From assembly GCA_023397655.1 (NCBI GenBank), contig JAEWTW010000026.1, forward strand, positions 182,463 to 246,462: a DNA stretch of 64,000 nucleotides. Reading direction: 5' to 3'. Positions 22,213 through 39,944 of the stretch are shown here, piece after piece (the first letter of the stretch is position 1; the number at the start of each line of letters is the position of its first letter). The notes below the pieces were generated by a model. The model was not told where the DNA came from. It did not search any database and saw nothing but the letters and a program-made list of their open reading frames with translations. Position numbers and translations under genes: made by a program. The DNA is from Bacillota bacterium. Lineage in GTDB: Bacteria; Bacillota; Clostridia; Christensenellales; SZUA-584.

Positions 22213-23430
22213 TTATTCAATCATACACGCTGAGCCATTATATTTTCGGAACTCAATACCTATACCGATATCCGTATGGTATCCCGGCTCGTCCGCGTAG
22301 TTTCCGTTCCACGCGATCTCATCAAGAGTAGGCGTATCATATGTTTGACGACGCTGTTCAATCAGTCTTAATGCTTCGCGGCCCATAACCGTGAGCGCGA
22401 ACCTGTCCTCCTCAAAAATATCCATTAACGACTCGGCGGCGGCTAAGCGAATTCCATAATTTTCATTGCTCAGCCTGCCATACTCGAATACCGCCTTCTG
22501 GTTGCATTCAGGCAAACCTTCATAAGCGGCAAGACGCACCTCGATACTGCAATCGTGAACAGCGGTATCACGCATCCACTCCATCTTATTCGGGAAATCA
22601 GCCTTTACCAATCTTTTTGCCGCCTCAGGGCGGATATACCAATCGGTTGTGTTTTGGACCAGATCCATCAGTAGATCTGAACGGGTGATTTGGTTTAAGA
22701 GGTTCAAGGCATCAAAGATGATATGTCCATTACAGAGCCGAATATACGCAGCCTCTTCATTTCGCCCCAGCCGTTTAAAAAGAACTTCCTTTTGGTCAAT
22801 CGTCAGTTTCTTATCCTGCAGTTTCGCTTCCAGTACGGCATGATTGCTGCAATGCGATACCGCGCAATGCCATAACCCGTTATTCTCGGCAGTATCCTTT
22901 ACAAATCGCTCGATCGTCTGCTGGTCATCCAGTTCGATCGCAGCATTCAGCCTATTCTCCGGTCTCGCATCCTCGCCGCACACGGCGCGCCTTAGCAAAT
23001 CGTCGGTGAGTTTATTAAAAGCAAGCGCACCTGCCTTCTCCCATTTAGCAGTCTTGGCCACTTGGGTCAGCAACGTTTCGTCAGTCATTGTTTCCACCGC
23101 CGCAGTGTAAAGATCCATCTCCTTGATCGCCAAGCGGCAAAGAAGCTGCTGATTCACCGATCTTTTAATCGCAGCCTGGCGCGTCCGCGCAAGATAGTTT
23201 CCTTCCGCGATACTGTCGATGACCGCCGGGTCGGATATCTGCATTAGCGCTGCGCTTTGGACAGGCGGCCAGCGAGCGTCTCGTACCAGATCAAGCAGCG
23301 CTGCCTGATCTTCGCGCAGCCGCTCTGCACCCAGCTCCGCAAGCTTGCCATCGTATGAATTCAACAGCGTTTTTTTGATCCAGCGCAGATTATTCGTGTG
23401 CAGCATCCTTCGGAATACCCAGGATTCCAT
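22213..23430 (-). CDS. HEAT-like alpha-solenoid paralogue (divergent N-terminus), HTD tail
   Basis: Start moved to MESW (AAGGAGGA upstream). Repeats of the type D..VR/IR..AA..L. Tail EPGYHTDIGIGIEF. Confidence 0.6.
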   Translation of the reverse strand: MESWVFRRMLHTNNLRWIKKTLLNSYDGKLAELGAERLREDQAALLDLVRDARWPPVQSAALMQISDPAVIDSIAEGNYLARTRQAAIKRSVNQQLLCRLAIKEMDLYTAAVETMTDETLLTQVAKTAKWEKAGALAFNKLTDDLLRRAVCGEDARPENRLNAAIELDDQQTIERFVKDTAENNGLWHCAVSHCSNHAVLEAKLQDKKLTIDQKEVLFKRLGRNEEAAYIRLCNGHIIFDALNLLNQITRSDLLMDLVQNTTDWYIRPEAAKRLVKADFPNKMEWMRDTAVHDCSIEVRLAAYEGLPECNQKAVFEYGRLSNENYGIRLAAAESLMDIFEEDRFALTVMGREALRLIEQRRQTYDTPTLDEIAWNGNYADEPGYHTDIGIGIEFRKYNGSACMIE

Positions 23431-23455
23431 TGTCGTCTCCTCCTTAAACATTCAC

Positions 23456-25576
23456 TTAGTGCTCAAAGTCGAACACCGTTTCCACCGTCACATCGCATCT
23501 TTCCGAAGCGCAGCCCGGATCAAAATCATGGTGCTTTAAGAGTGTGCGGCTGCCCAACTGCTTCAGCGTATTATGGCAATCTTGCGACTTTCCGTAGGCA
23601 TAGCAAAGGAAATCCCTCGCTTTTCTAAAGTCCCTCAATTCACTGCAATTTAATACCTTGTCGATCTGTTGCTTTATATACTCCATGCCGCCGTATTCAA
23701 TATAAACGTCGTCCATGTCTTTGCCTGTCAGTTTCGTAATCACCGTGGCATACCGGGGCACTTTATCCGCATCGCCGCTGCGCACCCCTGGTACAGCTGC
23801 TGTGATGATCGCTTCCCGATCTGCCAGAAAAACGTCGTTTGAGAGCCTCGCCAATATCGTTTCCATAGAAACGCGCCCATCGCGTACCAACGCAAGCAGC
23901 GGCGCCCATCGCCTCAAACGGCCGACAGCCGCTGTGCGGATATCCGACTCATCATCTAATATAAGCGATTCAAGAAAGTCCTGATCGTCAATGCGCGCCA
24001 CCGCTGCAACCCGAACACGCAGTGACGAATCGTGCAAGGCTACTTCTTTTAGGTCGCCCTCGTCAAGTGCTACCAGGGCCGCGATGCGCAGATTCTCCAG
24101 TTCCTTGGCGGCGGCCTCATGGACGTCGCTTCTGGCGTCTGTTTGTTGTATGATCCGCTCCAGCGCCGCCGCGTCAGCGATCCGTTCTGCCGCGGCTACG
24201 GCGAAGCGGCTGCCGCCCAGCGCGATCCTGAGCAGGATGGCGGTATCCGTGATATAGTTCAGGACATCGGCGCTGATGTATGTCTCCAGTCCGTCCGCCA
24301 GTCCCATTGCCTGATAGATGATGTCCTGGTTGCGTATCTTTGGCAATGCAGCGGCCACCAGTTCCCTGCCGTCCGCCGTCGGCGTTTGCTTTGTATGCTC
24401 CCAAATAACCTGCCCCAGCCGTTCATCTGAGGTCAAACGGCTGACCGCAGCCATACGTATGGACTGACGATAGCGGTGTCTGTCGCACGCCAGCTCTGCG
24501 AGCAACGGCTCGCTGGTCAGACGCAGCACCGTTTTTTCGTCAAGCTCGCTCATATGGCGCCGCGCATACAGGTTGAGGTCGGACGGGGCGGCGAGCATCG
24601 ATATCGCTTTTTGCCGGGCTTTATAGTCCCGGGATTCGATCGCCACCTCCAGAAGCTGATCCTGAGATAACGCAGTCAGCGGGATATTTGCCGGCGTCTT
24701 TGCTTTCTTCCCACCTTTTCTCTCAATGAGTGCGGGGCGAATCGCCTTTTGCAACAGCGCTTCCGTTACATCGTAAGGATGGGCGCTAATAAACTCTATT
24801 ATGTCTGCACGTTCTGTAAGTCTGCCTGCCGCTGCCTGTCTGATGGTAGCGGAATCGTTATGCAACGCTATACTTAAAAGCACCTTCTTTTCATCAATCC
24901 TGTCGAGCGCCATCATCCTCGCTCTAACTGCTTTTGCTGCACTCACCGCTTCGAGAACAGCGTCCTCGCTTCGCAGCCCCTTCACCAACGGCGCAACCGC
25001 ATCGCTTAGCGTAACTCCCATATCATCAAGCATTTTCAGCGTATTCAGTATCATTTTATCCGAAAATCGCCAAAGCATCGCGGAAACTTCTGGAGCGGAG
25101 CGCGAGAATATCCCCACACATTGCAGCAATACGATCGCCAGAAAATCTTCATCCTTAGCACAGCGTTTCAGGTACTCGTTCCGGGCTTTTTGTTCAAGAG
25201 TTGCCAGCATCTTTGCGAACGCTGCGTGGTCTTCCGTCACATCAAGCGCGGCGGAAAACAACGCAGCCACGCGCGCCGCATCTCCCTGAGACGCTTCATA
25301 TTCCAGCCGCTGCAAGATAGCCTTGAATTCCTGTGGATAATCCGCGATGCAAGAAAGCGCTTTTCCTGCCACACCTGCGCTGATTCGCGGTTCATCGAGA
25401 GCCAGGCGTTCCAGCAACAGCTCGTCTTTGATGCGAGATACCGCGAAAAACGCCACCGATTCCTCACGCGCGCCTTTAGCCGCACGCAGCAGCGCACTGT
25501 CGGAATCCAATGCAGCCACCGCTGCCAGTGCTCTGTTCGTATCTTTATCCTGCCATGCAGGTGACAATAGTCCCAT
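23456..25576 (-). CDS. HEAT-like alpha-solenoid paralogue, 706 aa
   Basis: N-terminus MGLLSPAWQDKD behind AGGAG. Many A..RL.D...L..IA repeats. Tail KHHDFDPGCASERCDVTVETVFDFEH. Confidence 0.7.
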   Translation of the reverse strand: MGLLSPAWQDKDTNRALAAVAALDSDSALLRAAKGAREESVAFFAVSRIKDELLLERLALDEPRISAGVAGKALSCIADYPQEFKAILQRLEYEASQGDAARVAALFSAALDVTEDHAAFAKMLATLEQKARNEYLKRCAKDEDFLAIVLLQCVGIFSRSAPEVSAMLWRFSDKMILNTLKMLDDMGVTLSDAVAPLVKGLRSEDAVLEAVSAAKAVRARMMALDRIDEKKVLLSIALHNDSATIRQAAAGRLTERADIIEFISAHPYDVTEALLQKAIRPALIERKGGKKAKTPANIPLTALSQDQLLEVAIESRDYKARQKAISMLAAPSDLNLYARRHMSELDEKTVLRLTSEPLLAELACDRHRYRQSIRMAAVSRLTSDERLGQVIWEHTKQTPTADGRELVAAALPKIRNQDIIYQAMGLADGLETYISADVLNYITDTAILLRIALGGSRFAVAAAERIADAAALERIIQQTDARSDVHEAAAKELENLRIAALVALDEGDLKEVALHDSSLRVRVAAVARIDDQDFLESLILDDESDIRTAAVGRLRRWAPLLALVRDGRVSMETILARLSNDVFLADREAIITAAVPGVRSGDADKVPRYATVITKLTGKDMDDVYIEYGGMEYIKQQIDKVLNCSELRDFRKARDFLCYAYGKSQDCHNTLKQLGSRTLLKHHDFDPGCASERCDVTVETVFDFEH

Positions 25577-25933: not shown

Positions 25934-27046
25934 TCATACGGGCAGGTCAAAGTGCACCTCCGCTTTATCTTCGTGTGGGGCACAACGATCTTCTCTATAG
26001 TCGTAATGCTCGTGATATGTACGTCGAGGGATTTTCAAAATCGCTTCACGCACCGCATCGTCCTTGGTTTCGCGATACATTTCCAGCAAGGCTTTCCGCG
26101 CAAAAGGCGCAACACGTCGGCTTTTTTCCATTATACGCAACAACGCTTCCACCGATGCTTGGGTTCGGATGTCTTTGAGCCGATCACATACTTCCCGATA
26201 TTGATCAAAATCTTTGCGATCTATCAGCTTCTCCAGTGCCGGAACAACGCGCGGATCGTCAAGCTCCATCAGATAATACGCATTATCGTTGCGTAGACAT
26301 TTGCTTATTAAAGCTGCAAGCGGCTGGGAATAGCGTGAAGAATCACGCTTCATGAGTTCAACTGCCACAAGGCAGCGCACATGCTTCAAGTTATCGGTGC
26401 ATAGCGCAAAGGACAGTAGCGAAGCATTGGATAATCGCGTCATTGCCAATTCAGCAATTCTTGCACGGCACCCCTCGTCTGAATCTTCCAAAAGATTTTT
26501 TTCGAGCAGGGCTAGATCGTCAATCTTATCGAAAATGTCCTTATTCCAATAGGGGTCTCGACGAAAACAGAAATACAATGTGTTTGGATCGGTAGTGATT
26601 TTTGCAAGGTGTTGGGCGGTGTTCCTGCGGACCTGGTGATCTTTTTCAGACATGATCAGTTCTTTTAGCAGTTCCACGTTCATAATTTTTTTCGAGGCAT
26701 TCATTCGAGCGAAGAAACTTGTTGCTTCTGCCGCTATCTTGAACAGCATATTATCGTCGTAGATTTCCTCCATTGCTTTTCTTGTGGCTTGATTCTCCTT
26801 AATACGATAAATTTTTGAATAATCGCATTTTATAATTGCCTCGGTTCGTACATAAACCGAGCTATCCGTTGCAGCGATTTTCGCGATTACTTCTTGATCC
26901 GTCAGCTTTTTTACAGCGAAGGCGCGCGTTCTTTCAAGTGGTGCTTTGAGCGCTGCTTCAGCAATCTTTCTCTGGTCGTTCAGATTTTCGATGGCATTTT
27001 CAGCTCGAGCTCTGTCCGTGCTCATCCATGGTGTAAATAGTCCCAT
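25934..27046 (-). CDS. HEAT-like alpha-solenoid paralogue, 370 aa
   Basis: Start at MGLFTPWMSTDRARAENAI (AGGAGG upstream). Tail TYHEHYDYREDRCAPHEDKAEVHFDLPV. Confidence 0.7.
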   Translation of the reverse strand: MGLFTPWMSTDRARAENAIENLNDQRKIAEAALKAPLERTRAFAVKKLTDQEVIAKIAATDSSVYVRTEAIIKCDYSKIYRIKENQATRKAMEEIYDDNMLFKIAAEATSFFARMNASKKIMNVELLKELIMSEKDHQVRRNTAQHLAKITTDPNTLYFCFRRDPYWNKDIFDKIDDLALLEKNLLEDSDEGCRARIAELAMTRLSNASLLSFALCTDNLKHVRCLVAVELMKRDSSRYSQPLAALISKCLRNDNAYYLMELDDPRVVPALEKLIDRKDFDQYREVCDRLKDIRTQASVEALLRIMEKSRRVAPFARKALLEMYRETKDDAVREAILKIPRRTYHEHYDYREDRCAPHEDKAEVHFDLPV

Positions 27047-28598: not shown

Positions 28599-28624
28599 TT
28601 GGTGAATCCTCCTTTTTTTATCAA

Positions 28625-29812
28625 TTAGTTGTTGATAAAGCTCCAATATTCCGAGAAGTTTTCCTCACTTAGAAGAATCCTTGATCCGTAGATCTGCTTG
28701 CCCTTTGCTGCATCGAGCATCTCTTTGCGCACGCTCTCGCCGACAGTAGTGGCATAGTCAAACAATCTTTCGGAGAAAATGCTCTCTCCCGTTGTAAGGT
28801 TCAACAATTCGGCATCCAGCGAGGCGTTGTATTGCGGAATGGTCGAATCATCATCACCGAAATGGAACGTCCCGATTTTGTTTTCATAGCTGTAATGCAA
28901 CAGAAGCGCATAGGTGGCTTTGTTGGGATCATCGGTTAAGATCAGTCCGCCGAACAAAAGATTGCCTGAGGTTTCTATCATGTCCTGCGTGCTGATTGGC
29001 TTATGTCGGGCGGAGGCACTGTTGTACCCGCCTTCGGATTCCCTTTTTGTTACGAGATCGATCACCTTATCCGCACAGACGATGTAGTATTTGGGAATGG
29101 GAGAGGACGGCGTAAAGGCGCGGATGTCCGAAACCCCATAGGCGCTTTGAAGGGCTTGTTCATCCCAATTACGAAGCAGCGTCTCATCAAAAATGGTTTC
29201 AGCGGGGTCTCTTAGTGCGGCTAGCTCATCTTCTGCTTGAGACGAATAGTAGGTGCTGGGATCCTGTATGGATAATTTGAAACCGAAAACGCCACACCCG
29301 ATTGTTGTTTGCGTGCCATCTGTTCCGCTGTACAAATAGTTGTACACCAATAAGAACGGAGCAAACTCTTCGTTAAAGCACAGGTTTGAAATCGTGTTCG
29401 CGCCCACAGAAAATTCATCAGTATATTTGCCATATTGAACAGGGTACGGCCCCGCGAAGTTCTCTGTGGCCGAGGCAACTTTTATTTGGGTCTTTGAATC
29501 CCCACTGCCCACTGATGCATTTAAGTTTGAGATCTTAATCGTTACGTCATGGATGTACGTTTTGTCGGCAGAGAGAATAAAGCTGCATTTGATATCGCCA
29601 ACACCGGAATTCTTGCTATGCCCTGCGAAAAGCAATTCGCCTTCTTTGGGCTTAGCCACAGGTTCCACAGTGGGGGCTGACGGTGGTTCAACCGTGGGCG
29701 CTGCGGACGATAGTACTTCCGGTGATGCCGTTACTGCGGGAACGGGTGCACTGCAGGCTGCCATCGAAACAATTAGCAACAACGCAAGAAATGTGAACAG
29801 TGTCTTTTTCAT
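28625..29812 (-). CDS. lipoprotein of unknown function
   Basis: Signal peptide and lipobox IVSMAAC. No other motif recognised. Confidence 0.6.
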   Translation of the reverse strand: MKKTLFTFLALLLIVSMAACSAPVPAVTASPEVLSSAAPTVEPPSAPTVEPVAKPKEGELLFAGHSKNSGVGDIKCSFILSADKTYIHDVTIKISNLNASVGSGDSKTQIKVASATENFAGPYPVQYGKYTDEFSVGANTISNLCFNEEFAPFLLVYNYLYSGTDGTQTTIGCGVFGFKLSIQDPSTYYSSQAEDELAALRDPAETIFDETLLRNWDEQALQSAYGVSDIRAFTPSSPIPKYYIVCADKVIDLVTKRESEGGYNSASARHKPISTQDMIETSGNLLFGGLILTDDPNKATYALLLHYSYENKIGTFHFGDDDSTIPQYNASLDAELLNLTTGESIFSERLFDYATTVGESVRKEMLDAAKGKQIYGSRILLSEENFSEYWSFINN

Positions 29813-29868: not shown

Positions 29869-30864
29869 CTACTTAAACAAATTCCATGATAAATCCGTCA
29901 GGTCATACAGCACTTCATGCGTCATTTTACTTTTATCGCACAATTTTCCCGTCAGCAACAATGTTCCATCACGCTTTAACCCAGCGGTTATATCAGCGTT
30001 GGCTTTTATGGCCACAATGTCAAGCCAGTGCTGTGTTGCTGTTTCTCCATTTTCACTAAATCCTGCGGAAACAACGGTACCGTCTCCCTTAAGCCCTATT
30101 GACGTATGGTTACCAGCCGCGACAGCAACGATATCACGCCATTGCTCCACCGCGAGGCAGCCGCCAGCATCGTTCCCAAACGCTTTCACCGTTCCATCAG
30201 CTTTTAACAAAAGCGTATGGTTAAAGCCTGCAGCGGCCCCAATGACGCTTTCAATTCCGGGAATATCACATTGCCCACAGTTGTTATCGCCGGCGGCAAG
30301 CACTTTACCGTCGGCGGTGATTCCAATGGTATGATTATCTCCTGTAGCGACGTCGACCACGTTGTTCCATCCGCTTACATCGCATTGCCCATAGGCGTTG
30401 TAACCCGCTGCACTAACGCTGCCATCCTCATGAACGGCAACAAAATGATTCATCCCAGCGGAGCCTGTCAACACGTTGCACATCCCTGCAACGTCGCATC
30501 GCCCGTGCGCATTCTCTCCGGCTGTAAGCACAGTCCCTTTATTGGTGATCGCTGCCGAAAAGTAGCCACCACCGCAAAGAACCGCAACATTTTTCCAGTC
30601 TTTGCTGTTGTTTCTGCCATCCTTACCGAAACCTGCGGAGAGAACACTGCCGTTGTTCCTGAGGCCCATCACATAACCGCCGCCAACGGCGATTCGAGCC
30701 ATCATTTTTCTTGTTTCACTTAGACTGAATCGAGCTGCTTGCACCGCTTCTTCATAAACCAGGCCGCACGCCCGTTTTGGCTGTTGTATCTGCGGTTTTT
30801 GTCCCGATGCCAGTGAGTTGTTGGTCTCCTTTTCCGTCTTTTTCAAAATATCAGAAAATCCCAT
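29869..30864 (-). CDS. RCC1-like repeat (beta-propeller) protein
   Basis: At least six repeats of ...G..HT.G...DG.V.A.G.N..GQCDV..W.... No signal peptide. Confidence 0.75.
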   Translation of the reverse strand: MGFSDILKKTEKETNNSLASGQKPQIQQPKRACGLVYEEAVQAARFSLSETRKMMARIAVGGGYVMGLRNNGSVLSAGFGKDGRNNSKDWKNVAVLCGGGYFSAAITNKGTVLTAGENAHGRCDVAGMCNVLTGSAGMNHFVAVHEDGSVSAAGYNAYGQCDVSGWNNVVDVATGDNHTIGITADGKVLAAGDNNCGQCDIPGIESVIGAAAGFNHTLLLKADGTVKAFGNDAGGCLAVEQWRDIVAVAAGNHTSIGLKGDGTVVSAGFSENGETATQHWLDIVAIKANADITAGLKRDGTLLLTGKLCDKSKMTHEVLYDLTDLSWNLFK

Positions 30865-30987: not shown

Positions 30988-32244
30988 TCATAGTGGCTCA
31001 ATAAGCCCGTCCTTGACCACATAATCACTATGGCCGGCACAATTGCTGCTGATGGGTCCGTCGTTGTGGACATCGCGGAATCGCTTTTTCTGGCGGGCAG
31101 CGTGCTGTGCGAACGGCTCCGGCAGCTCCGCCTCGGAATAGAGCCAGCGCAACTGTACGGTGGCAAAATGATCACCTCCCGACACCCTTTTTTCCAACGC
31201 CTCGATTAGCGCAAATGAACAGCGCTTTTGGAAAAGCCCGCGCAGCTCCCCACTGTCACCGGATTGCTGCACATACCGAATAGCATCCTCCTCGCCACCA
31301 CACCAGGCAAGCCGTTGCTTAAAAATATCGCTGTGCTGCGGATATTCCGCCTCGCGTCTCCGCCACCAGCAAGCCGACGCGTATTCAACTGGTATCCATG
31401 TGGCGATATGTTCACGTTTTAGACTATCTTTTGGCAAATTTTCAAACAGCGTCATAAGCTCATCGGCCTTCATTTTTTTCATAGCGGCAGTTTCGGCATC
31501 TATCACTGTCGTTTTGACAAAGACGTCTTGTGCGTCGCCAGGATCAATACGTTTGGCGGCTCTGACACTTATATAGCTATCCATAAGGGCAATCTGTTTC
31601 AAAAGTGCTGGGTTTTTGATACATTCATCCTCAATGCTCTTGATACACAGCTTTTGCATGCTCTTTTCGTCAGCGAATGAGAGGATCAACTTGCATAGCG
31701 CGTCCTCATCCGTTATCTGTTCACCGCAAAGAGCACGCAGCTCGCCGTTTTCCGAAGCATCCATCGCAATTTGCGCAAACAGCCTTTGGTCAGCCTCGCC
31801 CCAGTCGGATTGTTTAAGCTCCCCCAGGCGCTCCATCGCGGCACAACGCACATCTGCAGAAAGCGCGCTATCCGCCACAACATGGGTAAGCAGTCGGACG
31901 TCGCTCAGGTGTCTCACAGCCGCGCGTTTCCCGGAGTCGCTGGGGTGCTGTCGCACAAGCGCATACAGCAAGCTTGGGTCGGTCAGCCGTTTCAATACTA
32001 TCCAGCCGAAGGCTTCCAATGGCAGTTCTTGCGTCAGTGCCATAAAGAACTGTGCAAGAAATTGCTGGTCATTAATACGTTCAATGCAAAGCTGACGCAA
32101 ATGAACCTGATCGTCGGGGAGCAGGCCGGAATGGCCTATATCCGAAAGCAGTATTTTAATCAGCTTTTTCTCGTCGCGTATTCTGCCGATAGCCTTTTTT
32201 TGCTTAGCCCAGTTTGTCGTCATATAAGGCTTAAAAATACCCAC
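30988..32244 (-). CDS. HEAT-like alpha-solenoid paralogue, 418 aa (GTG start)
   Basis: AAGGAGGA, 4 nt spacer, then GTG gives MGIFKPYMTTNWAKQKKAI. Lies 16 nt downstream of the radical-SAM stop. Tail FRDVHNDGPISSNCAGHSDYVVKDG. Confidence 0.7.
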   Translation of the reverse strand: MGIFKPYMTTNWAKQKKAIGRIRDEKKLIKILLSDIGHSGLLPDDQVHLRQLCIERINDQQFLAQFFMALTQELPLEAFGWIVLKRLTDPSLLYALVRQHPSDSGKRAAVRHLSDVRLLTHVVADSALSADVRCAAMERLGELKQSDWGEADQRLFAQIAMDASENGELRALCGEQITDEDALCKLILSFADEKSMQKLCIKSIEDECIKNPALLKQIALMDSYISVRAAKRIDPGDAQDVFVKTTVIDAETAAMKKMKADELMTLFENLPKDSLKREHIATWIPVEYASACWWRRREAEYPQHSDIFKQRLAWCGGEEDAIRYVQQSGDSGELRGLFQKRCSFALIEALEKRVSGGDHFATVQLRWLYSEAELPEPFAQHAARQKKRFRDVHNDGPISSNCAGHSDYVVKDGLIEPL

Positions 32245-32260
32245 AATATCCTCCTTTTCG

Positions 32261-34456
32261 TTACGTGAGCATGCCTGCCAAATGTATAAACGCGGCTTTC
32301 CGAGCCGTGCAGTCAAAGTCTCCGCTGTCAATGTTCTTATCTTTTGACCATGCCTTACACATCCCGCCGCAAAGGTATCGAACTTCGCATTCTTTGCATT
32401 TTTCATTCATGTCCACATCGTGCCGGGTTAGTTCACGGAAAGTCACTCCCTCTACAACATCATCCAACCTATCTTTGAGCAAGTTGCCCAGCTTCTTATC
32501 CGCACCGCACCACGCATAGCACGGATAAGCGCCGCCGTCCGGCTCCACGTAAAGGTTCTGCCCAAAGCCGCAGGAGAAGCGCGGCCTGAAAGGCCGTTTC
32601 TTCTCATTCTCGTCTATGCAGAGAAAATCCGAGTCCTTCGGTGCGCTTTCCGCCCTACCTAACGGTAGAATTGGTCTGAATCGCACATTTTCGATCCCAA
32701 GACGTTCGCACAATTCATCAACCGATTTCCCTTCTTGTCCTTCGCGCTGCGTTTTAGTCAGCGTCGCGCAGACGCCTACCCTGCGGATGAAGCCCAATTC
32801 CTTAATTCGTTCAAGGTTATCTATCGTCCGTGCGTAACGCCCTGCGCCGCGCTGCGCATCGTGGCTCGCTTCGTCGCCGTCTACGCTGACCACAATTTCA
32901 GGAAAGGCCTCGCACACAGCTTTCAGGCGCTCATCGGAAATCGGAAAGCCAAGCGACGTGCGCAGTATCAGCCGCATACCTTTCAGCGAAATACGCCTGA
33001 TTCCCGCGAGCATTGCGTCGATTTCGGTATGCACAAGCGGCTCTCCGCCCGTCACCACCACCGCGCGAAAAAACGACTTCTGCGCCGCTTTGATAATATT
33101 AAGCATCGCGTTTGCAGGCATTTCGTTCATTTCACTCTCGCCACCCCGCGCATAGCAATGCCCACAGCGCAGCGGGCAATCGAACGTGACATGCAGATAC
33201 AGCTTGTTGAGTTCATTGACTCGGTTTTTCTTGTAACGCTCAAGAGCAGTACTCGCGCCATACGGATAACGGCCCCACTTGGACGCTTGTCTCATACGCT
33301 GTTCGTTGATCTCCAGATCGTAGGGGTGCGGCTGGTCCCCTGCCATCTGCAGCAGCGGAGCATTCTCAGGAGGTATGCGTTTCGTCATAATGTAACCCAT
33401 CTCAAGCGCCATATCGCGCGATATCTCGTCAAACAACGCGCGGTATGCCTTGCAATAAGGGTCTTTCGTGGTGTCTGAAGCAAACATGTTGTAAAGGCAT
33501 CCGCCGCTGCAATACGGGAAATGAACGCACGTCCCGCACTCAGTATGCGCGCCTTCCTGCTTTTCCAGTAATTTGCGGTACGCTGCGCTTTCAATAATCT
33601 GCGCTTCGGTCAGGTCGTCCATCACGTTTCCCAGCGCAAATTCCTCATGCCCGCAGAAGCGCTGGCATGAATAAACGCTGCCGTCCGGAGCAATCGCGGC
33701 GAAACGCCCGAGGCACGGAAAAAAAGTGCACGTATGCCCTTCGCCATCAAAGCAGCCTTTCGCCATGGAATCCAGCGTAAATACCCTTGTCTGCCGCATA
33801 TTTTTCTTGTATGCAGCCAGGGTATCCAGCATAATTCTGGCCATGTCGTGAGCGGTCACAGTATACGCGTCAGGCTCGCAGCCCAGTGCGCGTACCGCAC
33901 CGTGCAAAGCATATGGAATTCCGCTGCGCAGACTGCCCGCATAATGCCGGAATACGCGCTCAGCCTCGCCCGCGGATTCATGGGTAAACGTGCAAATACG
34001 GCTGGTCTCCACGCCATATTGCAGCAGCACCGACCGACCGCTCTCATTGGCAGCATAGTACCCTTTCCCGCGCTGCGCATCGCACATCGCTTCATCGCCA
34101 TCGATGCTGGTTCCTACGGCAATGCGGTAATCCCGGATGAGCTGCGCCATATGTTCGTCCATCGCGATGAGGTTACTCTGTATGGAAAGGCGTAACCTGC
34201 GTCCAAAGCGTTGCTGCAGTTTTGGCAGTATGGTTTCGAAAAATCCCGCACCAGCCAGCAAAGGTTCGCCGCCGTGAAATGTAACGCGTACGCTTCCCTC
34301 TTCCGGCGCGATCCGTTCCATAAAATCAAGCACTTTATCTGCCACCTCGCGCGTCATGGTTTCACCCCGGTTGGGGCCGAAGCAATAGGTACACGAGGCC
34401 TGGCAGGCCGCTGTGGGCACGAGCATGAAATTGCCGGGGCGAAAAGACGGTTCCAT
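32261..34456 (-). CDS. fused double radical-SAM/SPASM-domain enzyme
   Basis: Two CX3CX2C sites (CQASCTYC and CPLRCGHC). Each is followed by Cys-rich SPASM-like segments (CTFFPC...CQRFC...CGTCVHFPYCSGGC and CGFG...CYAWC...CKECEVRYLCGGMC). Start is ATG 34456 or GTG 34459, behind GGAGG. Confidence 0.85.
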   Translation of the reverse strand: MEPSFRPGNFMLVPTAACQASCTYCFGPNRGETMTREVADKVLDFMERIAPEEGSVRVTFHGGEPLLAGAGFFETILPKLQQRFGRRLRLSIQSNLIAMDEHMAQLIRDYRIAVGTSIDGDEAMCDAQRGKGYYAANESGRSVLLQYGVETSRICTFTHESAGEAERVFRHYAGSLRSGIPYALHGAVRALGCEPDAYTVTAHDMARIMLDTLAAYKKNMRQTRVFTLDSMAKGCFDGEGHTCTFFPCLGRFAAIAPDGSVYSCQRFCGHEEFALGNVMDDLTEAQIIESAAYRKLLEKQEGAHTECGTCVHFPYCSGGCLYNMFASDTTKDPYCKAYRALFDEISRDMALEMGYIMTKRIPPENAPLLQMAGDQPHPYDLEINEQRMRQASKWGRYPYGASTALERYKKNRVNELNKLYLHVTFDCPLRCGHCYARGGESEMNEMPANAMLNIIKAAQKSFFRAVVVTGGEPLVHTEIDAMLAGIRRISLKGMRLILRTSLGFPISDERLKAVCEAFPEIVVSVDGDEASHDAQRGAGRYARTIDNLERIKELGFIRRVGVCATLTKTQREGQEGKSVDELCERLGIENVRFRPILPLGRAESAPKDSDFLCIDENEKKRPFRPRFSCGFGQNLYVEPDGGAYPCYAWCGADKKLGNLLKDRLDDVVEGVTFRELTRHDVDMNEKCKECEVRYLCGGMCKAWSKDKNIDSGDFDCTARKAAFIHLAGMLT

Positions 34457-34472
34457 CACGATATTTCCTCCA

Positions 34473-35522
34473 TCAATCAGGTTGAAACAGTATCGGTTGT
34501 TCAATAGCATCTGTATGCCCCATATCTATGTGATCTCCGAGGTCATAAAACTCATGATGCACATCGCTGTGACGCTCGGGAAGAATCATGCGTCCGCGGA
34601 ACAAATGAATTTGTTCCACAAATCTCCCGTTCTTATAGATGAACTTGAGCAAAGCGCTTGCAATCATTGAGTGTTTTTCAAAGCATACATGGACGAGCGC
34701 CTGAAGCAAGGCGTCGTCTGTATTATCTATCCAGTCGGTGCGGCCTTCTTCGCTCAGCTGTATCAGTCGTTCACCCGCCTTTTCTGCATAACCATCTCCG
34801 CCGCTCAGAAAAATATTTAAAATTCCCATTGGTTTTAGTCGTGCCAATGCGGCGTCCGAACGATGCTTTTTCGCGGCTTTAAGGAAAACCTGCTGATTGT
34901 CGGGCATCCTCTCCAGCGCCCATTCACGAGTGTCCGGATATGTAGAATTCGAGGCTATATAGGCGATATCCGCCTTTTCAACTATTTTTGAGAACGCCGC
35001 TTTGCGCACATCTGAGTCCTGATCATTCAGGCATATTTGCAGCAATACGTCTCGGCATACATTTCCAGATTTCACTGCTTTACGCTTTTCATAAGCTGAA
35101 TGTGCATACTGCGCAATAAGCGTATCAGCTTCTGGATCATTGCCCAGTCGTCTGTGCGCAACCGCTCGCACTCCCCAGTTGGGATCGGTTTTGGTAAGTT
35201 CTTGGAGAACCGCCGCGTTTTCAATGCGTTCGGCAGCTCTCTGGCGAAAGCTGTCAGTTTCGCAATGCCGCCCGATCTGACTCAAGAGTCCCTGGTCGGT
35301 GATTCGATCAAGCAAGTCGGCAGCGTAGACGTTTGGTTTCATAACAATTTGATATAGCAGCGTCTGATCGGTAAGCCGTTCTGCCGCGACTTTTCTTACT
35401 TTATAGTGGAAGCTTCCATCCGAGATAATCTCAAACAACGTTTGTTGATCCCTGATACGTTCGACGGCTTTTGCCGCTTTAACATGATCCCGATGTTTCC
35501 ATCCGGGTGTGAACAGGCCCAT
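34473..35522 (-). CDS. HEAT-like alpha-solenoid paralogue, 349 aa, HxD-richest tail
   Basis: Start at MGLFTPGWKHRD (GGGAGGA upstream). Its stop lies 1 nt before the radical-SAM gene's GGAGG RBS (start 14-17 nt further downstream). Tail ERHSDVHHEFYDLGDHIDMGHTDAIEQPILFQPD. Confidence 0.7.
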   Translation of the reverse strand: MGLFTPGWKHRDHVKAAKAVERIRDQQTLFEIISDGSFHYKVRKVAAERLTDQTLLYQIVMKPNVYAADLLDRITDQGLLSQIGRHCETDSFRQRAAERIENAAVLQELTKTDPNWGVRAVAHRRLGNDPEADTLIAQYAHSAYEKRKAVKSGNVCRDVLLQICLNDQDSDVRKAAFSKIVEKADIAYIASNSTYPDTREWALERMPDNQQVFLKAAKKHRSDAALARLKPMGILNIFLSGGDGYAEKAGERLIQLSEEGRTDWIDNTDDALLQALVHVCFEKHSMIASALLKFIYKNGRFVEQIHLFRGRMILPERHSDVHHEFYDLGDHIDMGHTDAIEQPILFQPD

Positions 35523-35535
35523 CGTTGAATCCTCC

Positions 35536-38187
35536 CTACTCGTCCAAATTGAAATATGTATACCCCTCATCATTGTGGCACCACTCGTCGCGGTATGCTT
35601 TGCCCTGAACATCCGTGTGGGATATGACTTTCTTTTCGAGTCCTTTTATAGCATTCGTAAACCGTCCCATTGAATAAACCTGTTTGAGCGCCACTGCCAT
35701 TGGCCGGTAATCAAACCGCTCATCCTTTTCGTTTTCAGCAATGACAGATATCATCTCCCTAACCGTTGTTTCGCTCAGTTGCCGCGCCCAACCCACGTCC
35801 AATTCATTTAAACGTGCACAAATCTCCGGTGTAAAGGTAAACGGTATGTTTGATATTACGATTTGGAAAAGCGCATTTGCATCTGTGATATGCTGCAGCG
35901 CACGCTTGCGAGTTTGCAGTTCCTTTGCATTGCGGGCAATAGTCAGAAGTTTATCTTTGTCGGATATCCTCAATAAATCCATATCAACCCTCTCGATTTT
36001 CAGCGCGATGTCGCAAAGCATATTCTCATTCGTGATACGGTGTATGGCTTCGATCCGCATATCCAGCGGCATACTCACGTCGAGCGCAATGGCTTTGAGT
36101 TTTTTTGCATCTTTTATATCCTCAAACTCTGCCATTTGTTTTTTGAGGTTTACATCTCCATATGAAACGTTGTTATCACCCTTTTCTCTCAGTGTTGTTT
36201 CTGGCATCGGCAGTAAATCCATGTAGACATAATCGCCGTCCTGATGGCACCATTTGTCGCGGTATTCCTTGCCGGTAAGGTCAAGGTGCGCCACGGCTTT
36301 TCCATGCAGCTTTGCAATCGCCACTTTTGATCGTCCCTGCATATAGACGTTTTTCAATACGGCGGCAAAGTGCCGGTAATCAAATTTCTCATCCTTTTCG
36401 TTGCCCGCAATGACGTCTATCAGCGCCTTGACTGCCGCGTCGTCAAGCTGTTGCACCCAGTCCGCATCCAGCTCATTAAGGCGCTCGCAAATCTCAGGCA
36501 TAAAACTTTTTGGCACGTTGGCGATTACTGCTTTATATAGCGCCTTCGCGTCATGAACGCGCTGCAGCGCCTGTTTGCGTATCCGCCGATCCTTTGCGTC
36601 TCTGGCAATTCGCAACAGCATATCCGGATCTTTGATCGTGTGCAGGTTGAAATCCTGCTTCTCCGGCATCTCGATTTTAAGCGCAACGTCAAGCAGCGTA
36701 TATTCGTCCGTGATGCGGCGTGCTGCCGCCGCGCGTATTCTCGGCGCGACATCGCTATCTAGCGCAATTTCTTTTAAAGCTGTCTGGCTTGTGACCAACT
36801 GCAGATCTTGCAGTGCATCGTCTGCATCCCTGTTATTTCGCAGCCTGAATATCGTCGGATCGATCTCCGGCTTTATATCGTCAAGTTCCAGATAGGTAAA
36901 GCCTCCGTCTTCGTGGCAGCCCTTATCACGGTTCACCTTGCCGCTGGAATCGCTGTGAGATACGGCAGTCCCTTTAAGCGCCGCGATACTCTGCGTCGCA
37001 CGTCCTTTCCCGTATATGCGCCTCAGTGCGGTCGCAATATGTGTATAATCGAACCGCTCTTCCGCCGTATTCTCCGACAATATTTGCGCCAAGCCCTCCA
37101 CGGTGCGGTTACTGGCTTTTTGCACCCATTCTTTATCGATTTCGTCGAGTCGCTCGAAAAATTTTCGGTCTCTGTAGTGCTTCGGGTTGTTGTCGAACAG
37201 TGTAAGCATCGTATCCAGCCTACCGATACGCAGCAGTGCCTTCTCGCTGATTTCGCTATCCTTTGCGCCATTGTGAATACGCAAAAGCGCCTCATCCCCT
37301 GACACATACTTCAACGCCTCCTGGCACAAAAAGCCCATCTGGTATTCGGACGGAAACAGTTCTGGGCCATCGTGCATGGCAATGCGCTCAAATATCGTGA
37401 AATCCCGGATACGACTTTTTGCCTGCACACGCACCTCCTCTGGCCCGCACAGCGCCATCAACGCCAGCCGTCGGTCGTCTCCGATGTCTTCGGGGCTTAC
37501 CAGCTTCGCGCATTCACACAGCACGTATTGATTCAACGTTTGATCCATGATTACCTGCGCAAGTGCCGGGTCGCCCGCTTTCTTCACTGCTCCGGTGCAA
37601 ATGTGTGATTTCTGCGCCGTGTGTGCCAGCTTAACCGCGCGGTCGGTATTTTTCATATTGACAATTGCGGCTAAGCGAATCTCTTCATTCTCCGCCATGT
37701 CGAACATGTCCTGCAGGTATTGCTGATCGCCAATCCTCTTCAGCGCAATAATTCGCACATCCCGATCGGGGTCTTTCGCCGCCAGCCATTTGAGCACCTC
37801 CTGGTCCGCCAAATGTGCTGCCGCCTTTCGGCGCAGCCCGTAGCCCCCTGCGTACCGAGCCACGGCAGCCAGACAGCTTTGCAGTTTCGCGTCGTTTTCG
37901 ACTGACTCCTTATCCAACTTTTCAAGGCCGTCCCACACGCGACACAGCGGCTCCACCGCCATCAGCCGCCGAAGCGCGGCTTCACGAGGGGCGCTTAATT
38001 TAGGCACATTGATAACATCGAGGATCAACCCGCAGTCCCAAAGCCTTTTTACCGCTTCCTCTTGGATATAGTGATTGGGTGCATTCAACGCCGCGTCGCG
38101 AAGTATTGCTTCCTTTTGAACTTTGTTCAGCGCCACCAATGCATTTTTAAAGTTCTCCGACATCCATCCCGGTTTGAAAAGACCCAT
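35536..38187 (-). CDS. HEAT-like alpha-solenoid paralogue, 883 aa, with a triplicated C-terminal module
   Basis: MGLFKPGWMSENF behind AGGAGGA. Three modules each end in H-x-D ... CH-x-D ... Y.Y..L. Confidence 0.75.
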   Translation of the reverse strand: MGLFKPGWMSENFKNALVALNKVQKEAILRDAALNAPNHYIQEEAVKRLWDCGLILDVINVPKLSAPREAALRRLMAVEPLCRVWDGLEKLDKESVENDAKLQSCLAAVARYAGGYGLRRKAAAHLADQEVLKWLAAKDPDRDVRIIALKRIGDQQYLQDMFDMAENEEIRLAAIVNMKNTDRAVKLAHTAQKSHICTGAVKKAGDPALAQVIMDQTLNQYVLCECAKLVSPEDIGDDRRLALMALCGPEEVRVQAKSRIRDFTIFERIAMHDGPELFPSEYQMGFLCQEALKYVSGDEALLRIHNGAKDSEISEKALLRIGRLDTMLTLFDNNPKHYRDRKFFERLDEIDKEWVQKASNRTVEGLAQILSENTAEERFDYTHIATALRRIYGKGRATQSIAALKGTAVSHSDSSGKVNRDKGCHEDGGFTYLELDDIKPEIDPTIFRLRNNRDADDALQDLQLVTSQTALKEIALDSDVAPRIRAAAARRITDEYTLLDVALKIEMPEKQDFNLHTIKDPDMLLRIARDAKDRRIRKQALQRVHDAKALYKAVIANVPKSFMPEICERLNELDADWVQQLDDAAVKALIDVIAGNEKDEKFDYRHFAAVLKNVYMQGRSKVAIAKLHGKAVAHLDLTGKEYRDKWCHQDGDYVYMDLLPMPETTLREKGDNNVSYGDVNLKKQMAEFEDIKDAKKLKAIALDVSMPLDMRIEAIHRITNENMLCDIALKIERVDMDLLRISDKDKLLTIARNAKELQTRKRALQHITDANALFQIVISNIPFTFTPEICARLNELDVGWARQLSETTVREMISVIAENEKDERFDYRPMAVALKQVYSMGRFTNAIKGLEKKVISHTDVQGKAYRDEWCHNDEGYTYFNLDE
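35539..36867 (-). repeat. two full ~220-aa tandem protein modules (aa 441-660 and 661-883); a half module precedes them (aa ~330-440)
   Basis: Aligned by eye: LKEIALDSDVAPRIRAAAARRITDEYTLLDVALKIE vs LKAIALDVSMPLDMRIEAIHRITNENMLCDIALKIE, and PEICERLNELDADWVQQL vs PEICARLNELDVGWARQL. Confidence 0.8.
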
Positions 38188-39299: not shown

Positions 39300-39944
39300 T
39301 TACTCCATCTCCAGATTAAATTCGTCGAAGCAGTGTGCCGCCACGTCGCCGCGCTGTGCAAGCACCTGCTGACAAACGATCACCGCTTTTGTGAACTCGC
39401 TCATGCGTTTATCAGAGGTGTCTATTGTAGCCAGCTCCTCGAAAAAACTCATTCGCCGCAGCAGATCTGCTTTCAGCAGCAGGTAGCGGTTCCAATCACG
39501 CTTCCGGCAACGTCTCATCTTTCGTTGGGTTAATTCCAGACACTTCGCACGCATTTCCCGCGCACGGACATCATCCTCCGCATCATCGCAGACCCATACC
39601 GCACAAAGGTATGCGCGAATCGCGCCTCGTATATCTTTTTGATGCTCACAGTGCAGCGCGCGCTTCTGGAATTGATATCCCAATTGGGGAAGCCCTATAT
39701 CTGCGGTCGCATATAACCGCTCCAGCACTTTGCATGCCGGGCGCGGCCATTTGCTTATATTTTCCGCCACGTAACCACAGTGTGGGCATATCATGATCCA
39801 GTGCTTCATCGTGGAACGTAAAAGCTGTGCGGGACGAAAATCAAGATCAGGCCCAGAAAACGTACTGAAAGACACCAACCACGTTTGCTCACTCGGCTGT
39901 CCACACGCAACACAATAAGCGATTTTTTCTTTTATCGTGCTCAT
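39300..39944 (-). CDS. DUF2225-like zinc-ribbon plus helical-repeat protein
   Basis: CVACG ... DLDFRP ... CPHCGYVA arrangement recalled from DUF2225, followed by a helical C-terminal half. Confidence 0.5.
   Translation of the reverse strand: MSTIKEKIAYCVACGQPSEQTWLVSFSTFSGPDLDFRPAQLLRSTMKHWIMICPHCGYVAENISKWPRPACKVLERLYATADIGLPQLGYQFQKRALHCEHQKDIRGAIRAYLCAVWVCDDAEDDVRAREMRAKCLELTQRKMRRCRKRDWNRYLLLKADLLRRMSFFEELATIDTSDKRMSEFTKAVIVCQQVLAQRGDVAAHCFDEFNLEME

Follow-up and report, generated by a model that had tools for sequence, protein, structure and literature searches.

Radical SAM/SPASM enzymes are known mostly as makers of small modified peptides, and to our knowledge those with clear full-size-protein targets are few, comprising anSME, QhpD, and the recently described HXS system. 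QhpD, whose target is an enzyme subunit, and PapB both join a Cys sulfur to side-chain carbons of Asp or Glu. FbiC (the F0 synthase, a fused CofG/CofH) has two CX3CX2C radical SAM domains in one polypeptide, serving one pathway. The HXS antiphage system combines two radical SAM/SPASM enzymes, HxsB and HxsC, with HxsD and a His-x-Ser repeat effector, HxsA, and the maturation of HxsA by HxsB and HxsC is a precedent for the modification of a repeat protein by such a pair (Li et al. 2026, PMC13128918). Triceptide synthases (HaaB, HtkB, YhhB and ChlB) link an aromatic residue, including His through its C2, to the C-beta two positions further on (PMC11499958).

We have analysed a 64-kb stretch of DNA, referred to here as the window, in which a gene encoding two radical SAM/SPASM modules in one chain lies among genes for HEAT/ARM-like proteins with a His-x-Asp (HxD) tail; the features are listed in Table 1. 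The fusion protein is 732 residues long when read from the GTG, or 731 residues from an ATG at 34456, the start indicated by homologues and by a separate gene prediction on an almost identical contig. The original prediction gave 730–749 residues, of which the lengths of 731–732 stand, whereas the 749-residue reading (from an ATG at 34510) overlaps the upstream gene and is dropped. It had also proposed that the chain contains two complete radical SAM plus SPASM halves, and this is borne out at several levels. First, Radical_SAM (PF04055, E = 1.3e-28) and SPASM (PF13186, E = 2.9e-16) each match two stretches of the protein in Pfam, together with a TIGR04085 score of 95 bits against a cutoff of 27. 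Secondly, the combination that marks the radical SAM superfamily, a CX3CX2C motif accompanied by the GGE and ribose motifs for SAM binding in a partial TIM-barrel fold, occurs twice, as CQASCTYC/GGEPL/SIDG (the Cys motif at residues 19–26, nt 34382–34405) and as CPLRCGHC/GGEPL/SVDG (residues 428–435, nt 33155–33178; 732-residue numbering), and the Cys-rich segments quoted earlier (CTFFPC and CQRFC in the N-terminal half, CGFG and CYAWC in the C-terminal half) are present exactly as given. Thirdly, both halves carry a SPASM domain, characterised by a seven-Cys pattern (C-x(9-15)-G-x4-C ... C-x2-C-x5-C-x3-C ... C) and two auxiliary [4Fe-4S] clusters, with cluster binding predicted here; there are eight Cys residues in the N-terminal half (C244, C249, C265, C308, C311, C317, C321 and C336, invariant among 67 homologues) and seven in the C-terminal half (C630, C647, C688, C691, C697, C701 and C717, conserved in the same set). 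Across these homologues, which share 36–85% identity, conservation is 90% or higher, and in places complete, for both copies of CX3CX2C, GGEPL, S-x-DG, and the SPASM Cys set.

Table 1. Features of the fusion gene and of the surrounding cluster of tail-bearing paralogues (window coordinates).
Feature	Coordinates	Strand	Remarks
Short copy or remnant, ~150 aa	21424..21876	-	full tail HIDGSGEICFENHVDAPEVIFHL kept; adjoins a serine recombinase gene
412-aa paralogue	22213..23451	-	weak HEAT_2 match; tail HTDIGIGIEFRKYNGSACMIE
706-aa paralogue	23456..25576	-	starts MGLLSPAW; variant tail HHDFDPGCASERCDVTVETVFDFEH
370-aa paralogue	25934..27046	-	HEAT_2 34.7 bits; tail HYDYREDRCAPHEDKAEVHFDLPV, nt 25937-26008
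Downstream putative substrate, 418 aa	30988..32244	-	GTG start; alpha-solenoid; flexible tail HNDGPISSNCAGHSDYVVKDGLIEPL, nt 30991-31068
Fused two-module radical SAM/SPASM gene	32261..34459	-	stop TAA 32261-32263; 732 aa from GTG 34459
C-module, residues 416-732	32264..33214	-	radical SAM core and canonical 7-Cys SPASM; no named family
Helical linker, residues 356-415	33215..33394	-	conserved LLxMAGDxPHPYD
N-module, residues 10-355	33395..34432	-	radical SAM core and 8-Cys SPASM; TIGR04083, anSME-like
Upstream putative substrate, 349 aa	34473..35522	-	starts MGLFTPGW; tail HSDVHHEFYDLGDHIDMGHTDAIEQPILFQPD, nt 34476-34571
883-aa paralogue, three 223-aa modules	35536..38187	-	each module closes with the tail motif (nt 36874-36957, 36205-36288, 35539-35619; two of the three internal)
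Broken paralogue, fragments of 119 aa and 224 aa	38242..39288	-	resembles the 883-aa gene; tail lost

The whole fusion chain is modelled by AF2 as one rigid body (pLDDT 92.7, pTM 0.89) with both radical SAM cores confidently placed, and the second half, whose SAM-binding architecture had been named as a point on which the original prediction could fail, is modelled as a full, high-confidence core. Structure comparison found no solved structure covering both halves. Catalytically dead radical SAM domains exist, and one whole lineage of the fusion family has lost both CX3CX2C motifs, as might be expected if only one module were catalytic and the other a degenerate radical SAM fold used for substrate binding or electron transfer. 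This is distinctly unlikely for the protein described here, as the CX3CX2C, GGEPL, and S-x-DG motifs are kept twice even at 36% identity, the C-module is modelled with its core entire, and the standalone relatives of the C-module are apparently independent enzymes.

Profile searches, suggested earlier as the way to place each half, assign the N-module to TIGR04083 and the C-module to no named family. TIGR04083 is an NCBIfam hypothetical equivalog with a whole-protein cutoff of 300 bits and a model that spans the N-module only (332.5 bits, residues 11–354 against model positions 2–347 of 376), and NCBI applies the name to distant fused homologues of 780–820 aa. The best NCBIfam match of the C-half is StsB (94.5 bits, cutoff 625), with PapB and SCIFF maturases also among the top matches and all far under their cutoffs. 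There are 108 representatives of the C-half at E≤1e-30, mostly fused; standalone relatives adjoin nif11-type precursors with Cys-rich cores, one with CFHSD, in three RiPP cluster contexts that include leader peptides and a C39 ABC exporter.

Among solved structures the nearest to the N-half is anSME (90 bits; target-normalised TM ~0.8), with ChlB the second-best structural match, and anSME (TIGR03942) is also the second-best NCBIfam match. The likeness to anSME (PDB 4K36–4K39) includes the absence of an RRE, an eight-Cys SPASM whose two auxiliary clusters are fully ligated (as predicted for the fusion) and, as proposed here, a full-size protein target; however, anSME is a single module whose target is C/S-x-P/A-x-R in sulfatases. 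That the fusion is a tandem-duplicated anSME, or a cofactor maturase of the QhpD, PqqE or MftC kind, is scarcely credible given scores of 193.8 bits for anSME (cutoff 349.45), 117 for QhpD (cutoff 453) and 88 for mycofactocin (cutoff 265). Neither a sulfatase nor an amine dehydrogenase, PqqA, or MftA accompanies the gene; domain searches of the interval from 17.8 to 44.3 kb, covering ORFs of ~120 aa or longer, gave no sulfatase, peptidase, or transporter; and the tails of the neighbouring proteins are without the sulfatase motif.

The fusion gene is separated by 13–16 nt from the paralogous alpha-solenoid genes on either side, and the tight junctions that had been described were recovered when re-measured. 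At the 5′ junction the upstream TGA (34475–34473) is followed after 1 nt by a GGAGG (34471–34467) and a 7–10 nt spacer ahead of the fusion start; at the 3′ junction the TAA is followed by a GGAGG (32254–32250) and the GTG of the next gene, across a gap of 16 nt. The flanking genes had been called HEAT-like paralogues, and several observations agree with this. They are paralogues of each other (BLASTP, E = 2e-10), and the AF2 model of the downstream protein is an all-helical solenoid of 26 paired helices (pLDDT 86) with a low-confidence tail, whose top PDB fold matches are all HEAT/ARM proteins, if weak (E≥1.6e-3). HEAT/ARM membership is taken here as tandem helix-turn-helix repeats in an alpha-solenoid together with a Pfam HEAT-family match; the latter is weak in the window (HEAT 24 bits, HEAT_2 20–35 bits) and strong in other phyla, with HEAT_2 matched by 53 of 84 tail-bearing neighbours (best E = 5e-156). 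Sequence divergence is rapid among orthologues of the downstream gene, for which a search gave just 11 matches, and yet the tail is invariant. Tail-bearing copies or remnants number at least seven in the window, and one has three tail modules; the broken paralogue to the right of the 883-aa gene is probably a pseudogene because its tail is lost.

In species genomes, a scan confirmed at least 558 related stretches, spread across many bacterial phyla and archaea and occurring in lineages as far apart as Bacillota, Methanospirillum, and an Asgard MAG; there are more than 120 full-length clusters. The original prediction described such a fusion as unusual, which is true among characterised enzymes but not in genomes, where it is common and its N-half already carries the TIGR04083 name. 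In the literature we found nothing relevant on TIGR04083, on HxD, or on radical SAM/SPASM enzymes paired with HEAT repeats, and on two or tandem radical SAM domains we found only a mention of FbiC; the fusion with its neighbours, a probable protein-modification system, is widespread and appears to be unstudied.

The tail of the HEAT proteins is a flexible C-terminus with 2–7 HxD triads, usually one Cys, and often a GIG-x-FP end; a C-x(0-4)-HxD spacing is seen in many. A regular expression and a strict tail HMM proved too narrow to catch all tails (35 of 81 loci), and detection was widened to an HxD count combined with a filter on composition. Among the 42 loci with at least 3 kb of flank on both sides, a tail-bearing gene lies on the same strand within 3 kb of the fusion in 36, and within 200 bp in 32. 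At least two HxD triads occur in the last 60 residues of 87 of 91 tails and of 14 of 1848 background ORFs (0.8%); the 87/91 figure is circular because the tail-bearing genes were picked partly by HxD count, and the fair controls are the background ORF rate and independent BLAST clustering. In that clustering (78 loci) no neighbour family is conserved other than HEAT/tail, which comprises 113 ORFs at 55 loci. In the survey of recurrence and flanks that had been proposed, the fusion recurs widely with a HEAT-repeat protein as its conserved neighbour, and the linkage to some other known substrate class that had been considered as a refutation is not seen at these loci. In an alignment of 84 proteins, near-invariance is confined to the columns of the H and D in two triads. 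Exactly one Cys is present in the last 50 residues of 70 of 91 tails and none in 8 of 91, including that of the upstream 349-aa neighbour, which has three HxD triads and no Cys, so that a Cys-based step cannot be universal.

In a classical RiPP cluster the precursor, a leader joined to a core, is encoded by a short gene, and a leader peptidase and an exporter are usually found with it. The NCBI family name includes 'peptide-modifying' and the nearest standalone relatives of the C-module sit in true RiPP clusters, in keeping with a RiPP maturase whose short precursor gene has been missed and for which the HEAT genes are bystanders. We regard this as very improbable: a six-frame scan found no short ORF with the tail motif in the 64-kb window, and of the six ORFs of at least 20 aa there with two or more HxD triads near the end, five are large genes of the cluster. 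The intergenic gaps beside the fusion, moreover, are just 13–16 nt, and neighbour clustering over the 78 loci gave no recurrent short precursor, peptidase, or exporter family. The usual partners of SPASM enzymes are thus absent nearby, as was first noted from the sequence. Rfam and tRNA scans returned nothing relevant to the cluster.

The flanking repeat proteins were put forward at the outset as substrates, and the recurrence of the HxD/Cys tail across phyla gives this strong comparative support; we infer the substrate role of the tails from gene linkage and motif conservation. In keeping with it, in the lineage of the family that has lost both CX3CX2C motifs the HEAT-like neighbour at one locus (L091) is devoid of an HxD tail, and a second locus (L071) has no tail-bearing gene. 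The HEAT proteins could instead be partners (scaffolds, chaperones, or recognition subunits docking via their tails) of an enzyme whose real substrate is another protein, a peptide, or a small molecule encoded elsewhere. HEAT solenoids are typically interaction scaffolds, the fusion enzyme is without an RRE domain, and a few loci have no tail-bearing gene within reach, e.g. that of Anaerolinea thermolimosa (L031); there is also a parallel in HxsC, which requires the small partner HxsD (PMC13128918). We nevertheless think a partner role unlikely, as each locus has several to many paralogous carriers whose bodies diverge fast while the His/Asp/Cys tail is invariant, which points to substrates sharing a core rather than to one dedicated partner; furthermore, the loci have no other conserved gene, and the tail is predicted by AF2 to be flexible, as a core peptide would be.

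We consider it probable, from sequence comparison, that the fusion is a single-chain two-module radical SAM/SPASM maturase acting on the C-terminal tails of the adjacent HEAT/ARM-like proteins; we infer the activity of both modules and all of the chemistry that follows. The maturase could hold up to six [4Fe-4S] clusters, and its substrates would be the co-transcribed, fast-evolving solenoids on both sides and further along the cluster. The target would be the flexible tail, with its two or more HxD triads, usual single Cys, and short hydrophobic end. Each module would cleave SAM, abstract a hydrogen atom from a tail residue, and introduce a modification, probably one per module. The product would be a full-size intracellular protein, since the system has no leader peptide, protease, or exporter. 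The C-module would act on the tail Cys to form a thioether-type cross-link towards the adjacent HxD; its seven-Cys SPASM and the Cys-rich RiPP clusters of its nearest standalone relatives suggest it as the Cys handler, and because its SPASM has seven Cys its auxiliary cluster I may have one open coordination site. The anSME-like N-module, with both auxiliary clusters predicted to be fully ligated, would carry out a second step dependent on hydrogen abstraction at an HxD triad, closing a triceptide-type cyclophane from His to the Asp C-beta or introducing an oxidation. This division of chemistry between the modules is drawn from Cys counting and three anecdotal RiPP contexts.

The proposed maturase shares some properties with each of the described systems. 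As in HXS there are two radical SAM/SPASM catalysts and a protein with repeated His-x-(small polar) triads, and the proposed product is a modified protein, not an excised peptide. Unlike HXS, the enzymes are fused in one chain, the repeat is His-x-Asp rather than His-x-Ser, and the carrier is a cytoplasmic HEAT solenoid with a C-terminal motif and no signal peptide cleavage or peptidoglycan-binding domain. A His-Xaa-Ser system has separate HxsB and HxsC above cutoff, an HxsD partner, and a His-x-Ser repeat protein; the match to HxsB (TIGR03978) is partial, in the N-half, and far under the cutoff of 370 (140 bits for the whole protein, 61 for the C-half), and no NCBIfam or Pfam match marks an HxsD partner among the window neighbours. 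Nor does PADLOC support a link to phage defence: the radical SAM cores gave only generic viperin-fold matches, and there was a single weak HEAT match.

With PapB, QhpD, and sactisynthases (CteB) the fusion shares the seven-Cys SPASM of its C-module, typical of that group, and a tail that often reads C-x(0-4)-H-x-D. In contrast to them, it has usually one Cys per tail and in some tails none, and no leader peptide or RRE. A PapB-type ranthipeptide maturase (NF047865) scores at least 340 bits and has a leader-bearing precursor with Cys-x3-Asp repeats; the scores here are 190 bits (N-half) and 78.6 bits (C-half), with no short precursor. Triceptide synthases are recognised by a family score above cutoff, aromatic-x-x precursor motifs, and an aromatic-to-C-beta cross-link. 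His-x-Asp fits the repeated aromatic-x-x pattern, and ChlB ranks second among the structural matches. YhhB (NF041707, 111 bits, cutoff 445), GrrM/OscB (TIGR04261, 90 bits, cutoff 310), and FxsB (TIGR04269, 93.7 bits, cutoff 370) are all under cutoff; these synthases, moreover, are single-module enzymes with short leader-containing precursors, and a His-x-Asp cyclophane is here a candidate only. FbiC, unlike the fusion, has no SPASM domain, makes a small-molecule cofactor, and is unrelated in sequence.

The family is thus large (at least 558 stretches) and phylogenetically broad, pairing two enzymes in one chain with HEAT proteins that share only a His-x-Asp/Cys tail, and the enzyme, the operon, and the substrate motif are defined well enough for direct testing. 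A more specific reading, which we offer tentatively as a possibility, is that this is an undescribed system, very widespread among bacteria and archaea, in which a six-cluster, two-module enzyme puts two different RiPP-type cross-links into the C-terminal tails of cytoplasmic HEAT proteins of full size; one conceivable pair is a cyclophane between His and Asp and a thioether at Cys. If so, whole families of fast-diversifying scaffold proteins would carry a His/Asp-rich cap that is covalently stapled and might bind metal. If the tails are modified at all, they would represent a new class of protein post-translational modification and a natural system for the cooperation of two radical modules on one substrate, and would provide a function for thousands of genes labelled only as 'HEAT repeat protein' or 'TIGR04083 family'.

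The best-supported reading of the fusion gene, which encodes two radical SAM/SPASM halves (the N- and C-modules) in one polypeptide, is that of a two-module protein maturase with the C-terminal tails of co-transcribed HEAT-like proteins as candidate substrates. The translation contains CQASCTYC (residues 19–26) and CPLRCGHC (residues 428–435), each followed by GGEPL, S-I/V-DGDEA and a C-terminal segment rich in Cys, in exact agreement with the motifs quoted in the original prediction; Pfam Radical_SAM (E=1.3e-28) and SPASM (E=2.9e-16) each match two stretches. The predicted length of 730–749 aa can be narrowed, as the 749-aa start of the longest ORF (32261–34510) falls within the upstream gene, whereas homologues support ATG 34456 (731 aa) or GTG 34459 (732 aa, followed here for residue numbers); a database protein 99% identical to it is 731 aa long, and independent gene calling on a near-identical contig yields three consecutive genes of 349, 731 and 418 aa. 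The tight junctions proposed with both neighbours are also present: the upstream stop (34475–34473) is followed by one nucleotide, GGAGG, and 7–10 nt to the fusion start, and the 16 nt between the fusion stop and the GTG of the downstream gene include GGAGG.

Clustering by BLAST of the ORFs at 78 non-redundant loci identified a single neighbour family conserved across them, the HEAT-repeat proteins (113 ORFs at 55 loci), into whose cluster the window paralogues fall; the remaining clusters that recur consist of antisense artefacts, generic regulators and ABC ATPases. The pairing with HEAT-like proteins seen in the window is a recurrent one. Pfam HEAT_2 matches 53 of 84 tail carriers (best E 5e-156), and NCBIfam has no model for them. 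What these proteins have in common is the tail, a C-terminal segment predicted to be flexible and bearing His-x-Asp (HxD) triads, with examples from Methanospirillum (...SEHNDHYSSSDCGHTDNGKIGLDFPL), Chloroflexia (...HSHEDHEKSSDCFFHTDEGIDVAFPG), Bryobacterales (...HADFAGHDDNHESFNDCKHADHRSHEDKGIGVAFPV), Prolixibacteraceae (...DCTHQDNSWIEKNHTDIGIGMEFPEKPPKL) and, among others, the window (...HNDGPISSNCAGHSDYVVKDGLIEPL and ...HYDYREDRCAPHEDKAEVHFDLPV). In an alignment of 84 proteins, conservation reaches 90% at the H and D positions of two triads and in no other column. Two to seven HxD triads occur in the last 60 residues of 87 of 91 tails, a count that is partly circular because HxD content helped to select the tails, the fair controls being the BLAST clustering and the background rate of 14 in 1848 (0.8%) among the remaining ORFs (150 aa or longer) at the same loci. 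Exactly one Cys is present in the last 50 residues of 70 of the 91 tails (eight have none), and in 77 a Cys stands 0–8 residues ahead of an HxD, often with S-D just before it. Among 42 loci flanked on both sides by at least 3 kb, a same-strand tail-bearing gene lies within 3 kb of the fusion at 36 and within 200 bp at 32, either upstream or downstream; at two of the six remaining loci the tail is a variant form, with a single HxD and Cys.

In the window the HEAT-like tail family forms an array spanning about 21.4–40.5 kb (see table), in which most copies begin M-G-L-F-x-P. Apparent pseudogenes, the broken, tail-less copies suggest that the array undergoes birth-and-death turnover. In the 883-aa paralogue the tail motif closes each of three 223-aa modules (residues 411–438, 634–661 and 857–883), so that two candidate modification sites are internal rather than C-terminal, and two relatives keep this architecture. 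The tail of the upstream neighbour has three HxD triads but lacks Cys. Only 11 homologues of the downstream neighbour could be detected in 5.8 billion clustered sequences, and H393, D395, G396, G404, H405, D407, I415, P417 and L418 are invariant in them: the body is fast-evolving and the tail fixed; its AlphaFold2 model is a 26-helix solenoid (pLDDT 86, below 50 at residues 391–405), and its fold matches are exclusively HEAT/ARM proteins, but weak.

Coordinates of the features discussed, in the window and at related loci in other genomes
Feature	Locus	Coordinates	Strand	Remarks
Large serine recombinase	window	19467-21149	-	Resolvase, Recombinase and Zn_ribbon_recom domains
Tail-bearing short copy or remnant	window	21424-21876	-	
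Tail-bearing gene	window	22213-23451	-	
Tail-bearing gene	window	23456-25576	-	
Tail-bearing gene	window	25934-27046	-	
LRR lipoprotein	window	27090-28646	-	
RCC1-repeat protein	window	29869-30864	-	in or beside array
Downstream neighbour	window	30988-32244	-	tail-bearing
Fusion gene	window	32261-34459	-	two-module radical SAM/SPASM
Upstream neighbour	window	34473-35522	-	tail-bearing
883-aa paralogue	window	35536-38187	-	tail-bearing
Broken copies	window	38242-39288	-	tail-less; 119 + 224 aa
CxxC-pair protein	window	39300-39944	-	214 aa
Broken copy	window	40081-40473	-	tail-less; 130 aa
Ser/Thr kinase fused to LRRs	window	42560-44311	-	in or beside array
pemK RNA motif	window	63727-63804	-	RF02913, 55.9 bits
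Three-module relative	L005	6471-9140		
Three-module relative	L010	3413-5986		
Fusion without CX3CX2C	L091	3224-5383		protein P0106
Relative of CxxC-pair protein	L091	6767-7726		
Fusion without CX3CX2C	L071	9896-12034		
Precursor-type ORF	L084	164-484		beside standalone C-half relative
Precursor-type ORF	L085	76-294		beside standalone C-half relative
Precursor-type ORF	L086	4544-4849		beside standalone C-half relative
Fusion with non-HEAT tail carrier	L002	1-9000 and 21675-22184		context of P0077
In-frame TGA	L051	2728-2790		

Interleaved in the array are the LRR lipoprotein, which has LRR similarity to the kinase-LRR protein, a second lipoprotein and the RCC1-repeat protein, none of them conserved across phyla in the 78 loci. 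The serine recombinase gene is directly downstream of the array, and GC content is 50–53% in the array (22–44 kb) versus 38–42% in the next 20 kb (44–64 kb), so the cluster may belong to an integrated element or island. L002, a homologous locus in a Clostridia MAG, likewise has a serine recombinase nearby. The CxxC-pair protein (two such pairs, a PDLDFRP...LLRSTMKHW motif and no significant Pfam family) may be the product of a lineage-specific accessory gene. The pemK motif, unrelated to the fusion system, is the sole hit above gathering score in an Rfam scan of the window.

Judged by conservation, both halves of the fusion look functional. Among 67 aligned full-length homologues (36–85% identity), F61, G63, P66, L67 and eight SPASM cysteines (C244, C249, C265, C308, C311, C317, C321 and C336) are invariant in the N-half, as are G471, G472, E473, P474, C630, C647, C688 and C701 in the C-half, and conservation is at least 90% for C19, C23 and C26 in the former and C428, C432, C435, C691, C697 and C717 in the latter. 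The AlphaFold2 model from this alignment (mean pLDDT 92.7, pTM 0.89) implies two well-formed cores in a defined relative orientation, joined by a helical linker bearing a conserved PHPYD motif. The concern that the second half might lack a SAM-binding architecture is answered by its modelled core and conserved motifs, which are complete. A structure search found no solved structure covering both halves; the best matches, which each cover a single half, are to anSME (target-normalised TM about 0.8), ChlB (a triceptide synthase) and CteB (a sactisynthase). The halves share only 23% identity (52 bits) and the N-half is nearer to anSME (90 bits) than to the C-half, which points either to distinct SPASM lineages joined together or to a very old duplication. 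The N-half also resembles anSME, in which both auxiliary clusters are fully ligated, in having eight SPASM cysteines. The C-half keeps the canonical seven, with no counterpart of C249 in the alignment of the halves, and by cysteine counting and analogy with CteB its auxiliary cluster I may have a coordination site free for a substrate thiolate.

Profile searches place the N-half in NCBIfam TIGR04083, 'peptide-modifying radical SAM enzyme' (332.5 bits, cutoff 300), a hypothetical equivalog model of 376 positions that spans this half only. The remaining named families score far under their cutoffs: anSME (194 bits, cutoff 349), PapB (190, 340), DynA (164, 450), HxsB (140, 370), QhpD (117, 453) and YhhB (111, 445). 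No named family fits the C-half searched alone (top match StsB, 94.5 bits, cutoff 625). An exhaustive phmmer search of 1.84 billion representatives matched it to 108 at E≤1e-30, most of which are 700–830 aa long and matched at about residues 400–770, and are therefore fused; past this threshold the scores fall to the level of generic SPASM maturases about 450 aa long.

More than 120 full-length homologue clusters were recovered, and a scan of one genome per species confirmed at least 558 related stretches. Among the matches listed, carriers include Bacillota, Chloroflexota, Planctomycetota, Bacteroidota, Acidobacteriota, Armatimonadota, Desulfobacterota, Nitrospirota, the Gammaproteobacterium Lamprocystis purpurea and, in the archaea, Methanospirillum, Methanoplasma and an Asgard MAG; those closest to the window are Bacillota MAGs apparently in or near Christensenellales (OH_PBB_276, 93% identity). 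The architecture, recurring over many phyla, is thus common in genomes, and the expectation that a tandem fusion would be unusual holds only in that we know of no characterised enzyme with it. In a Nitrospirae MAG (nDJH13bin1; L051) an in-frame TGA stands at the first Cys of the N-module CX3CX2C (MTPSFMIIPSMA-TGA-QSNCTYCFGPN) and could encode selenocysteine or reflect a sequencing error; no unusual hairpin (z=0.43) is seen in the 67 nt that begin with the TGA.

One fusion lineage (L091 and L071) has lost both CX3CX2C motifs and has degraded GGEPL motifs, with the SPASM cysteines kept. At L091 the adjoining HEAT-like gene lacks the HxD tail altogether, and at L071 tail-bearing genes are absent; small Cys-rich zinc-ribbon-like ORFs are nearby instead, and a protein similar to the CxxC-pair protein is encoded at L091. 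The motif loss is probably a single evolutionary event, and its coincidence with tail loss is the correlation expected if radical chemistry and tail go together. The L002 locus pairs the fusion with a 252-aa non-HEAT tail carrier (...DRHDDYGNDCGWHNDKSVFAEFKL), and its neighbours are a TIR-TPR protein, a Ser/Thr kinase and a kinase-STAND (NB-ARC/AAA_16) protein, a neighbourhood that is conflict-system-like at this one locus.

The few standalone relatives of the C-half (358–384 aa) are located in classical RiPP clusters, where they adjoin nif11-type leaders ending in GG, followed by Cys-rich cores: GCFHSDEEFKRNGCNFPCSNYC (L084, with a C39 peptidase ABC exporter), GESWCYHHKE and GLCCDYTYRCSPYFPCNGNCDH. 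One of the three cores has C-x-H-x-D, and the clusters contain additional radical SAM genes. By analogy, these anecdotal contexts point to Cys-directed chemistry for the C-module.

We propose that the tails of the co-transcribed HEAT-like proteins would be the substrates and that each module would introduce one modification. The C-module would form a Cys-dependent thioether-type link; PapB and QhpD join Cys to Asp or Glu carbons. Because some tails have no Cys, this step cannot be universal. On an HxD triad, the N-module would carry out a second step that depends on hydrogen abstraction. H-x-D matches the aromatic-x-x pattern of triceptide cyclophanes, and links from His C2 to C-beta are known in HAA, HNR and HTK motifs (PMC11499958). 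Since the system includes no leader, protease or exporter, the product would stay a full-size intracellular protein.

The closest system-level precedent is HXS, in which two separate radical SAM/SPASM enzymes and HxsD mature a His-x-Ser-repeat protein, with +8 Da at an SHRSS motif (PMC13128918). Here, however, the enzymes are fused, the motif, carrier fold and localisation differ, and the score lies below the HxsB cutoff. The N-half family is already catalogued, under a long-standing NCBIfam accession and generic name; a search of the open-access literature found no paper on a TIGR04083-type enzyme, its two-module nature or HEAT-repeat substrates. We rate the fusion as a probable radical SAM/SPASM maturase acting on proteins, belonging to a broad family whose architecture has no precedent among characterised enzymes; through the proposed substrate motif the system can be tested directly.
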